Of a stretch of DNA of 64,000 nt, positions 6,711 to 10,381 are shown one piece after another. The stretch lies in the sequence record NZ_CP049261.1, one strand, 5' to 3'. The notes below the pieces were generated by a model, which had not been told where the DNA came from, searched no databases, and was given only the letters and a program-made list of their open reading frames with translations. This DNA is from a plasmid. Both the position numbers and the translations under genes were made by a program. Each line of letters starts with the position of its first letter. Position 1 is the first letter of the stretch.

Positions 6711-9376
6711 ATGAGCATGGAACACCAGTCAGCCGTATTACTGCGCCGTTTAAATCCATACTGCGCCCGCGCGCTGGAAGGCGCTGCGAGCCTGTGCCAG
6801 GCCCGCGCCCACGCGGAAATTTTGCCCGAACACTGGGTACTGAAACTGTTTGAGCAGGGCGAGGGCGATCTCACCGTGCTGGCCCGCCGTTACGAGTGGG
6901 ATATGGATGCTATCTGGCAGGATCTGCTGGCTTACCTTGACCGCCTGCCACGCTCGGTCAAAGGTCGACCGCAGTTGTCTGACAATCTGGAATCGCTGCT
7001 GAAGCAGAGCTGGCTTATCGCTTCACTTGAAAACGGCGAGGAGATCCGCAGTGTGCATCTGCTGGCCGCGATGATTGAGATGCCAGCACTGCTTTCCTGC
7101 GATGGCCTCTGGCCGCTACTGACAGTGGGTCGTAGTCAGCTTGAGCGGCTGCGCGGACTGCTTGATGCGCAGTCAGACGAACGCCCGGAGGCGCAGCAGG
7201 AAGCGCTGTTATCCCGTGCGCCTGCCGGTGAAACAACAACGTCACCTGTAACGCTCCCCAGCGACCCGACAGAGGATCCGCTTTCCGCAAGGCCAGGACT
7301 GAACAAAGCGCTCCAGGCGGTGCTGGATAAATTCACCCAGGACATTACAGCGAAGGCGAAAGCCGACGGTATTGATCCGGTTTTTGGTCGCGATAACGAA
7401 ATCCGCCAGATGGTGGATATTCTTTCGCGTCGGCGTAAAAACAACCCGATTCTGGTGGGCGAGCCAGGCGTCGGGAAAACCGCGCTGGTGGAAGGACTGG
7501 CGCTGCGCATTGCTGAGGGCAATGTGCCGGAGAGCCTGAAGTGTGTCACCTTGCGTACCCTTGATCTTGGGCTTTTACAGGCAGGCGCAGGCGTGAAAGG
7601 CGAGTTTGAGCAGCGACTGAAAAATATCATAGAGGCTGTACGTCAGTCGCCGACGCCGGTCCTGCTGTTTATCGACGAGGCGCATACCATTATCGGTGCG
7701 GGCAACCAGGCGGGCGGCGCAGATGCGGCTAACCTGCTGAAACCGGCGCTGGCACGCGGTGAACTCAGGACCATTGCAGCCACCACCTGGAGCGAGTACA
7801 AGCAATACTTTGAGCGTGACGCTGCGCTGGAGCGTCGCTTCCAGATGGTGAAAGTCGACGAGCCGGATGACGACACCGCCTGCCTGATGCTCAGGGGCTC
7901 AAGTCCCGCTACGCGCAGCATCACGGTGTGCATATCACTGATGATGCGGTCAAAGCCGCCGTCACGCTCTCACGCCGCTACCTCACTGGTCGTCAGCTTC
8001 CTGATAAAGCGGTGGATCTGCTGGATACCGCTTCGGCGCGCGTGAGAATGAGTCTCGACACCGTACCGGAGCCACTGACGCAGCGGCGTGCCCGTATCAG
8101 CGCACTGGCGATGGAAAAACAGGCGCTGCTGGAAGATATCGCAATGGGTAGCCACGCCCACAGCGAGCGGCTGGCAGAGATTGAAGAGGAAGAGGTCAAT
8201 ATCCTCACGGAACTGGACGTACTGGAAACGCAGTACGGTCAGGAAATTACCTTAACAGAACAGTTGCTGGCCTGTCGCCGTGATCTTTCCCGGCAGGCGG
8301 AGAGCGCGTCGCTGCAAAGCGAACTGGCGATTGTGCAGCAGGGCACTCCGCTACTGGGGCTGGACGTGGACGCGCGTACCGTGGCGACAGTGATTGCCGA
8401 CTGGACCGGCGTACCGCTTTCATCCCTGATGAAGGATGAACAGACGGAGTTGCTGAGCCTGGAGCAGCGGCTGGCCGCCCGGGTGGTTGGTCAGGACGTG
8501 GCGCTGGAGGCCATTGCACAGCGCTTACGCGCATCGAAAACCGGGCTGGCATCAGAAAACGGCCCGCAGGGTGTGTTCCTGCTGACCGGGCCGAGCGGTA
8601 CAGGTAAAACCGAAACCGCGCTCGCGCTGGCGGACACGCTCTATGGCGGCGAGAAATCGCTGATTACCATTAACCTCTCGGAATACCAGGAACCGCACAC
8701 CGTTTCGCAACTCAAGGGCTCTCCTCCGGGTTACGTGGGTTACGGCCAGGGCGGCATCCTCACGGAAGCGGTGCGCAAGCGCCCCTACAGCGTGGTGCTG
8801 CTGGATGAGGTGGAAAAGGCGCACCGCGATGTGATGAACCTCTTTTATCAGGTGTTTGACCGCGGTTTCATGCGCGATGGCGAAGGACGGGAAATCGACT
8901 TTCGCAACACGGTCATTCTGATGACCTCCAATCTCGGCAGTGATCACATCATGCAATTGCTGGACGAAAAACCGGACGCCAGCGAGACCGATCTGCATGA
9001 ACTGCTGCGTCCGATATTGCGCGATCACTTCCAGCCAGCGCTGCTGGCGCGATTCCAGACGGTGATTTATCGCCCGCTAAATTCGCAGGCGATGCGCACC
9101 ATCGTGGAAATGAAACTGTCGCAGGTCAGCCAGCGCCTGAGCCGCCACTACGGGCTGACGACGCATATTGATGAGAGCCTTTACGACGCTCTGACCGACG
9201 CCTGCCTGCTGCCGGACACCGGGGCACGCAACATCGACAGCCTACTGGCGCAGCAAATTCTGCCAGTATTGAGCCAGCAATTGTTATGCTACAGGGCGGC
9301 AGGACAGAAACCCCAGCACCTGACGCTTGGCTGGAGTGAGGAAGAGGGGATTTTGCTGGAGTTTAAACATGACTGA
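6711..9376 (+). CDS. clpV: T6SS AAA+ ATPase ClpV/TssH. Frameshift at the GGGG run near 7895.
   Basis: Two Clp/Hsp100 NBDs (..[18 protein letters not shown].. and ..[18 protein letters not shown]..). The N-terminal frame runs 6711-8045 and the C-terminal frame 7928-9376, continuous through ..[19 protein letters not shown]... Total about 888 aa. Confidence 0.85.
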
Positions 9377-9921
9377 AGAAACTAAGGATGAGTTCAGAAT
9401 CAAAGAAGGTGGTATCAGGCTGCTTACGCCAGGTGAAATAATGCTGGCGCAATCTGTTTTAAATCCACTATTGACTATTCGAAAGTCTGGATCCACAGGG
9501 AAAGTTATCTGCCCTTCAATCTTCAGAATAGAAATGCAGCAATGACCCTAATGGTGAAATTTATTTTCGTGACCATTACCGGGATGATTTCTCTCAGTCT
9601 ACAGATCATATGCAACATATATTTATTCATGAAATGAGCCATGTCTGGCAACGCGAGAGAGGAATGAACGTTATCTGCCGGGGCCTGGTGAGTTGGCTGG
9701 TTAGTTATCGATATACACTTGATGGTCGATTGCTCAGTGAATATCCAATGGAGCAACAAGCACAGATTATTGCGGATAATTTTATTTTGCAGACATTTGG
9801 CTATGAAATATGGAGTCACCTTGAAAATCAAAAATACCCTGACATCACCCTCGATGGGGATATTTCTGAAACGGTGATACGTGCCGGTTACAGAGCGACT
9901 TTAAAGGGGTTCCCATGGTAA
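9369..9921 (+). CDS. Putative T6SS cargo effector with zincin-like HExxH motif (IFIHEMSHVWQ). Frame break near 9530-9545.
   Basis: ATGA overlap with the clpV stop gives translational coupling. AT-rich. The two frames 9369-9545 and 9532-9921 look like one protein of about 180 aa. HEMSH motif. No family recognised from memory. Confidence 0.45.
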
Positions 9922-10381
9922 GTGAGAACAACGTTAATACGTTTAACCTTCTGTTTTTATCATTTGCTTGTGTTTCAATCCTGACGGGATGTCCGGGGCC
10001 CGGTGACATAATGCGCTTTGATGAAACCGCAAAGGTGAGCAGCAGAGGGAGGGATGTTTGTATAAATATTGATAATGCACAGGATTATCAGCCAGTGGAT
10101 ATCGGGATAAATCTAAGGGGAATACCCCAAAAGAGAAAAAGTTTGATTTTTCACCAGGTCTCAGGATTAGTGCCGGGGAGCTGTGTATTCCTCCTTCATA
10201 CTATAGTTTTGAAAATGGTAATAAGTATATTGTTGAATTTGTACTTCATGCAACTTCAGGAGTTAAGGATCCGAGAAGTTTTGTTGTCGGTGTTGGAGTA
10301 AATAATAATCATGTCTATAATTTTCCTTTGAGCGAACGTGAATTCGCAAGGCCGTATGGTTCAATTCAGGTTCCAGAATAA
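9915..10381 (+). CDS. Putative cognate immunity lipoprotein. Frameshift near the C4A4 run at 10125-10140.
   Basis: Lipoprotein signal ..LLFLSFACVSILTGC. Overlaps the effector stop. The second half reads ..KEKKFDFSPGLRISAGELCIPPSYYSFENGNKYIVEFVLHATSGVKDPRSFVVGVGVNNNHVYNFPL.. in the -1 frame. Confidence 0.4.

Follow-up and report, generated by a model that had tools for sequence, protein, structure and literature searches.

The closest described relatives of the gene pair considered here are metallopeptidase effectors from type VI secretion systems (T6SS) and their immunity proteins. The pair lies between clpV and vgrG in a 64,000-nucleotide stretch of plasmid DNA (sequence record NZ_CP049261.1), which as a whole is called the window below. 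One of them is VgrG2b of Pseudomonas aeruginosa, which has a gluzincin with periplasmic toxicity as its C-terminal domain (PMC6899460). Its toxicity is seen as midcell blebbing and lysis, peptidoglycan hydrolase activity was not detected, and E983 serves as the third zinc ligand beside the triad H935/E936/H939 (PMC6899460). Three lipoproteins, MltC, LolB and RcsF, were less associated with membranes in vitro, in tests with protein at non-physiological levels (PMC6899460). The protein encoded downstream, PA0261, binds and neutralises VgrG2b and depends for its stability on Dsb-mediated disulfide-bond formation (PMC6899460).

In many Enterobacteriaceae a putative cargo effector of this peptidase type is encoded, and the PA0261 homologues of these bacteria are predicted lipoproteins (PMC6899460). 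Wood et al. (2019) proposed to fold this family into Tpe-Tpi, named after Tpe1-Tpi1 of Acinetobacter baylyi (PMC6899460). One pair predicted at that time is SARI_02727/SARI_02726 (PMC6899460), with products of 189 and 154 amino acids, the second being of the DUF7480 and NF045617 type (PMC12992299). PelB-directed SARI_02727 is toxic to Escherichia coli, co-expression of SARI_02726 gives partial growth rescue, and competition assays with the two genes fit an effector/immunity pair (PMC12992299). For a predicted complex of the two S. arizonae proteins, an ipTM of 0.87 has been reported. Periplasmic toxicity has been shown for the VgrG2b C-terminal domain, for ACIAD0053 of A. baylyi and for SARI_02727, and it depends on catalytic residues in the first two (PMC6899460, PMC12992299).

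The gene pair in the window is very probably a T6SS effector/immunity cassette of this Tpe/Tpi type on a pESA3-like plasmid, in which the effector has been broken in the lineage of the window and the immunity gene has been kept. It follows the T6SS ATPase gene clpV (also called tssH; 6711..9376) and, like that gene and vgrG, is on the plus strand. The first gene, tpe (9369..9921), is a pseudogene that after repair encodes a free-standing zinc metallopeptidase of 184 amino acids similar to the VgrG2b C-terminal domain. The second gene, tpi (9915..10381), is predicted to encode an immunity lipoprotein that has 155 amino acids after repair. We adopt these lengths because an intact 184-amino-acid protein of Cronobacter sakazakii, 98% identical to the repaired effector, is encoded next to an intact 155-amino-acid lipoprotein gene.

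The layout agrees with a preliminary description made from the letters of the window. The tpe start codon (ATG, 9369-9371) lies just ahead of the clpV stop codon (TGA, 9374-9376), giving an 8-nucleotide overlap (ATGACTGA), and the tpi start codon (ATG, 9915-9917) likewise gives a 7-nucleotide overlap with the tpe stop codon (TAA, 9919-9921). The AT-richness that had been reported for the pair is also present, with a G+C fraction of 0.33-0.46 over 9300-10700 compared with 0.55-0.64 on both flanks. By gene, this fraction is 0.593 for clpV, 0.416 for tpe, 0.398 for tpi and 0.39 for the spacer before vgrG.

A family profile was made from an alignment of 37 effector homologues and searched against the PDB sequences with hmmsearch. 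There is only one match, over residues 15-141, to entry 6H56 ('Effector domain of P. aeruginosa VgrG2b'; E=2.9e-28). The residues H88, E89, H92 and E129 are invariant across the 37 homologues, and the window encodes them in frame only after repair. In the HMMER alignment they correspond to H935, E936, H939 and E983 of VgrG2b. The position of E129 is that of the VgrG2b glutamate located 48 residues past the first histidine, which is E983. The segment IFIHEMSHVWQ, which had been called zincin-like, is encoded at 9619-9651, with the HEMSH codons that include H88, E89 and H92 at 9628..9642 and the codon for the third zinc ligand, E129, at 9751-9753. The match to 6H56 and the conservation of the four catalytic and zinc-binding residues identify it as a true HExxH zincin.

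A structure model of the effector gives weak corroboration. An AlphaFold2 (AF2) model built from the 37-sequence alignment has a mean predicted local distance difference test score of 58.9 and a template modelling score of 0.39 to 6H56, and Foldseek with this model returned 6H56 as the sole significant match (E=5.6e-6, 37% identity). Against Pfam there are only sub-threshold matches, to eCIS_core and DUF6782, and no NCBIfam model matched. The eCIS_core match (PF13699, formerly DUF4157) covers residues 36-99 and scores 19.4 bits (E=1.2e-3), the cut-off being 22. The effector is related to this family but falls under the gathering threshold.

There are more than 400 relatives of the repaired effector across the Enterobacterales, and nearly all of them are named 'type IV secretion protein Rhs'. 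We reject this label as a misnomer, given a length of 184 amino acids and no match to any RHS-family model in Pfam or NCBIfam. The main value of the present analysis is corrective, in that a widely mislabelled gene on a C. sakazakii virulence plasmid is assigned to Tpe/Tpi.

The repaired lipoprotein matches NCBIfam model NF045617 (3.1e-25, 88.6 bits, cut-off 43) and Pfam family DUF7480 (PF24295; 8.4e-15, 55.3 bits, cut-off 27). Its export signal, identified by direct reading of the sequence, is an LTGC lipobox (9981-9992) whose Cys26 codon is located at 9990-9992, in a reading frame that ends at 10381. Two cysteines are present in the mature part, within RDVCINI and GELCIPP, and both align with cysteines of the S. 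arizonae homologue, mature-domain cysteines being partially conserved among immunity proteins of the PA0261 type. The VgrG2b-domain homology, the NF045617 lipoprotein and the S. arizonae pair bear out the earlier proposal that the clpV-vgrG gap holds an effector and its immunity protein. However, the pair is not unrecognised, as had been stated, since the family was described in 2019 (PMC6899460), the S. arizonae pair was validated in 2026 (PMC12992299), and the NCBI name for the lipoprotein is already 'putative T6SS immunity periplasmic lipoprotein'. It is a further member of an already described and experimentally validated Tpe/Tpi family.

A close comparison is with SARI_02727/SARI_02726 of Salmonella enterica subsp. 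arizonae, which is located in Salmonella pathogenicity island 20 (SPI-20). In our genome scan, the S. arizonae locus L034 has open reading frames (ORFs) of 189 and 154 amino acids, with HEMSH at residue 95 and a glutamate at 136, and we match them to the published pair because the lengths and residue numbering agree with the paper. The effector and lipoprotein of the window are 67% and 49% identical, respectively, to these two proteins. The cassettes share a free-standing HEMSH protein of 184-189 amino acids, a downstream DUF7480/NF045617 lipoprotein of 154-155 amino acids, and a position between clpV and vgrG. They differ in that SARI_02727 carries a Lys-rich N-terminal extension and begins about 15-90 nucleotides after clpV, whereas the Cronobacter effector overlaps clpV. 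Moreover, SARI_02727 is intact and active, whereas the copy in the Cronobacter pESA3 lineage is frameshifted and plasmid-borne.

Similarly, the VgrG2b C-terminal domain is a homologous gluzincin (about 37% identity over about 138 residues) with an HExxH motif and a distal glutamate, and both systems have a periplasm-facing immunity protein encoded directly downstream. However, the VgrG2b domain belongs to a specialised effector, being fused to the VgrG spike, and PA0261 is periplasmic and soluble, whereas the Cronobacter domain is a separate cargo protein and its immunity protein is a lipoprotein. The type VI metallopeptidase effector-immunity family has as its named founder Tpe1-Tpi1 of A. 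baylyi (ACIAD0053/0054), which acts in the periplasm (cited in PMC6899460). Tpi1, compared here by description only, differs in having a transmembrane helix as its inner-membrane anchor. Tae4/Tai4 of Salmonella SPI-6, Enterobacter cloacae and Serratia is likewise a small cargo effector with a periplasmic immunity protein, encoded in the same type of T6SS cluster. Unlike the effector considered here, Tae4 is a peptidoglycan amidase and not a zincin. Neither protein of the window matches the Pfam models for Tae4 or Tai4 at E<=0.1, in agreement with the earlier view that the pair is a different one.

To separate assembly errors from real lesions, the window was compared with C. sakazakii assemblies that are 99.92-99.95% identical to it, namely L086-L088 over 7297-29305 and L083 over 37628-60331. 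There are 13 indels in the first interval and 11 in the second, and all 24 are single-base deletions in the window. Every one of them falls inside a homopolymer, almost always a G/C run, at a rate of about 0.54 per kb. We read these window-specific deletions as assembly errors caused by under-calling, and other apparent pseudogenes elsewhere in the window should be treated as suspect for the same reason.

Deletions of this kind account for the split clpV, the split vgrG, the break in tpi and one break in tpe. The clpV gene, which appears as ORFs 6711-8045 and 7928-9376, is split by a G5-to-G4 deletion at about 7893, and in L001 and L086-L092 it is intact, encoding 886 amino acids with Clp_N and AAA domains. 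The vgrG split results from two deletions that only the window has (about 11879 and about 12864). In tpi the window has CCCC at 10125..10128 where CCCCC is expected, and the true reading is ...GIPPKEKK.... In tpe the window has CCC at 9546..9548 instead of the expected CCCC, a deletion that is missing from L086-L089 and L001. That the T6SS cluster of the window seems to be decaying throughout looks like an assembly artefact, and a decaying pseudogene array is rejected, since all breaks but one are window-specific.

The one exception is a T-run in tpe (9457..9460, at codon 31) that has four Ts (T4) where intact alleles have five (T5). It does not appear among the differences between the window and the assemblies because the near-identical assemblies carry T4 too. 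The same T4 run is common to L086-L088 and to L089-L092, and three of the latter four come from separate sequencing runs. The frameshift shortens the effector to 58 amino acids, with a stop at 9543-9545. Gene calls in the T4 contigs are clpV with 886 amino acids, the effector as 58 plus 126, and the lipoprotein with 155, while the vgrG call leaves the end of the fetched locus and its product on record has 969. The 58-amino-acid product is present on 436 contigs (listed in 501 blocks of the collection), and the four places shown have intact clpV and lipoprotein calls and the 969-amino-acid vgrG product on record. The 126-amino-acid remainder is found on 442 contigs and is identical to ESA_pESA3p05498 of plasmid pESA3 from ATCC BAA-894, and intact effector alleles (183-185 amino acids) are found on about 20 contigs. 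The C. sakazakii strain of GCA_006861625.1 is an example with an intact allele. The sharing of T4 by independent assemblies and 436 contigs indicates that in the dominant sequenced lineage the effector gene is truly a pseudogene, produced by a T5-to-T4 frameshift. This lesion is lineage-wide, so resequencing would not restore the effector gene.

The earlier statement that both genes need one frame correction therefore stands for tpi, where the site was also correctly predicted, and fails for tpe, which needs two. The effector is spread over three frames (9369 to about 9456, about 9457 to 9545, and about 9546 to 9921). A merge into 180 amino acids by one correction leaves residues 31-58 in the wrong frame, the correct length being 184.

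The window is a region of a pESA3-like IncFIB virulence plasmid of C. sakazakii, an assignment made because of the name ESA_pESA3p05498, the IncFIB relatives and the literature. Plasmid pESA3 carries a T6SS cluster, ESA_pESA3p05491-05506, that is flanked by dsb-type copper-tolerance genes (PMC7074816), and the gene order of the window agrees with this published cluster. A PLSDB search returned only plasmids that are 95-97.5% identical, and no exact pESA3 record was among them.

Two other pESA3-like IncFIB plasmids retain T5 and have lost the effector by different routes. In CP098775.1 a TCG-to-TAG change creates a stop at effector codon 38, and in CP028976.1 (pGW2) a 168-bp deletion removes HExxH and is accompanied by an extra 1-nucleotide deletion. 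In both cases tpi is intact, with 155 amino acids. In CP098775.1 (L093, 3370-3404) the clpV stop codon TGA has also become GGA (...GAC GGA...), so that tssH is annotated as 13 codons longer, at 899 amino acids, and runs into the broken effector gene.

The tpi gene is intact in every assembly examined. It has 155 amino acids in L001, L086, L087, L089-L092 and L093/L094, and in L088 the gene call is shorter (143 amino acids) with no indel relative to L086/L087. Between alleles (L001, L089, CP098775.1 and CP028976.1) there are 3-12 synonymous and 2-4 nonsynonymous codon differences, and these crude counts are too few to prove purifying selection. The only mildly new point here is that virulence plasmids of C. 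sakazakii have truly and recurrently lost the effector and retained the immunity. Three different lesions are known, namely the T-run frameshift, the nonsense codon and the deletion of the HExxH region. Perhaps pESA3-type plasmids of this species have repeatedly and independently disarmed the effector and always kept the immunity gene under selection for an 'immune but unarmed' state, rather than by neutral decay, a proposal that we make tentatively and hold to be somewhat doubtful. In the dominant sequenced pESA3 lineage the weapon is lost and the antidote kept, which bears on how T6SS competition in Cronobacter is interpreted. This is a small natural case of orphan-immunity retention, and it opens no new mechanism.

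One alternative is that an active toxin is still made from the frameshifted gene, either by reinitiation at Met59 or by slippage at the T-run acting as an on/off switch. The 126-amino-acid ORF (Met59-Trp184, a product of 14 kDa) is in the native frame and retains HEMSH and E129, and the length of the T-run varies by one base among alleles. However, the alignment to the 6H56 domain takes in residues 15-58, which include many invariant positions (R17, L19, E23, L26, A27, V30, F31, Y37, H43, S46, P49 and Q53), so that a protein lacking residues 1-58 is probably unfolded. In addition, slippage would not be efficient on a run as short as 4-5 nucleotides, GTTTTAA does not fit the canonical X_XXY_YYZ pattern, and the nonsense codon and the HExxH deletion in other lineages point to loss and not to regulation. 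We hold an active product to be very improbable. Programmed frameshifting at the T-run was rejected, as there is no canonical slippery heptamer and the lesions in other lineages are unrelated.

A second alternative, which we regard as less probable still, is that every frameshift including the one at 9457-9460 is a sequencing artefact and that the source genome has a functional effector/immunity pair. Homopolymer under-calling is evident in the window, and 9457-9460 is likewise a homopolymer. However, T4 is present in three NCBI assemblies (99.92% identical to the window) that lack the other errors of the window, and Logan assemblies made independently from separate runs carry it too. The number of contigs with the 58-amino-acid product, and the annotation of the matching 126-amino-acid fragment on ATCC BAA-894 pESA3, argue in the same direction.

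It is highly implausible that the HExxH protein serves the T6SS in an accessory or structural role, or is of the Rhs type, with an unrelated lipoprotein beside it, as the database names and the tight translational coupling to clpV might suggest, because the protein has no RHS/YD or other structural domain (the weak Pfam matches being just eCIS_core and DUF6782), is strongly homologous to a solved toxin domain, has an S. arizonae homologue with genetic and toxicity data, and is also encoded with its partner away from clpV, beside hcp or PAAR genes, as for a modular effector.

Under the Tpe/Tpi assignment, the 184-amino-acid protein of strains with an intact allele would be a cargo effector homologous to the VgrG2b C-terminal gluzincin domain. 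Its gene would be co-transcribed and translationally coupled with clpV, as suggested by the overlapping codons and by a promoter and terminator scan of 9200-10700, in which nothing exceeded shuffle expectation and neither a separate immunity promoter nor a terminator ahead of vgrG was found. Perhaps the neighbouring VgrG or Hcp delivers the protein as cargo. Injected by the T6SS, it would reach the periplasm of adjacent Gram-negative cells and be lethal there through zinc-dependent proteolysis, as in the homologues. The 155-amino-acid lipoprotein presumably faces the periplasm from the outer membrane and would bind and neutralise the toxin, in keeping with the binding shown for PA0261 and the partial rescue shown for SARI_02726. 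In the window lineage the effector is a pseudogene, with the immunity gene, clpV and vgrG intact in the near-identical assemblies. Most likely, retained ('orphan') immunity to relatives armed with Tpe is all that the cassette provides in this lineage.

Several points weigh against this interpretation. The function proposed for the Cronobacter proteins is drawn from their homologues. The AF2 model is poor, so the case for the fold depends on sequence homology. The n-region of the lipoprotein (MVSENNVNTF...) has no basic residues, which is atypical for a signal peptide. The frameshift calls come from related assemblies and not from reads of the source genome of the window, and the 126-amino-acid fragment starting at Met59, where stop and start codons overlap in ATGA, could in principle arise by reinitiation.

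The distribution of the cassette was surveyed in 47 species-representative loci with at least 60% identity. The order clpV-tpe-tpi-vgrG is complete in 28 of them, from about 20 genera, and several of the other 19 end at contig ends. Among the genera are Erwinia, Citrobacter, Pantoea, Pluralibacter, Dryocola, Enterobacter, Rahnella, Scandinavium, Kluyvera, Edwardsiella, Yersinia, Leclercia, Lonsdalea, Atlantibacter and Cedecea, together with Salmonella arizonae, and an overlap between the start of tpe and the stop of clpV is usual. The same gene pair is found between tssH and vgrG in E. coli PapRG-06-5. In all 28 full-order loci the G+C fraction is lower in the cassette (tpe 0.41-0.48, tpi 0.36-0.47) than in clpV (0.53-0.68), and therefore AT-richness is no sign of a recent local insertion. 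The earlier description of the pair as inserted is not supported, given that both the four-gene order and the AT-richness recur in these loci, and the pair is instead a conserved cassette of this type of T6SS.

There are also more distant Tpe paralogues in other settings. In Enterobacter adelaidei (L070, 5287-6932) hcp is followed by a 199-amino-acid Tpe and then a 135-amino-acid lipoprotein, and in Psychrobacter (L081, 5363-6549) a gene for a PAAR-domain protein is followed directly by a 211-amino-acid Tpe. The location of Tpe beside hcp or PAAR genes fits the modular effector picture of the literature. In Erwinia persicina CFBP8797, a Kluyvera species and Buttiauxella brennerae (L012, L023 and L024), about 530 extra nucleotides (about 6550-7080) separate the effector and lipoprotein genes, and these may hold a further small gene or a duplicate of the immunity gene.

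Downstream of tpi in the window is an AT-rich spacer (10382..10666) that contains a 61-amino-acid ORF (10415-10600). This ORF has no Pfam match and a gene call in just one related assembly, the scan shows no promoter or terminator signal above chance around it, and it is probably non-coding. The spacer is followed by vgrG (10667..13574), an evolved VgrG gene that appears in the window as ORFs 10634-11929, 11779-13017 and 12951-13574, which are one gene with two window-specific deletions. Its product is intact at 969-970 amino acids in L001 and L086 and contains Phage_GPD, T6SS_Vgr, DUF2345 and Aspzincin_M35 domains. The 207-amino-acid ORF with the motif LSHEMSHY (12951-13574) is the Aspzincin_M35 C-terminus of this protein and not a separate gene. 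Therefore the cluster encodes a second metallopeptidase effector, which is fused to VgrG.

The region 3' of vgrG (13571-14251, 14346-14993, about 15063-16606) encodes a protein of 207-226 amino acids without a family match, which is a candidate immunity protein for the M35 domain. This is followed by genes for a DUF2931 protein, a PAAR protein, a 274-amino-acid protein without a family match, and a SciN/TssJ lipoprotein. Homologues of dsbC and dsbD flank the T6SS cluster on the minus strand (16546-19313). Their proximity could be functionally relevant to a disulfide-dependent immunity protein of the PA0261 type, or it could be a coincidence.

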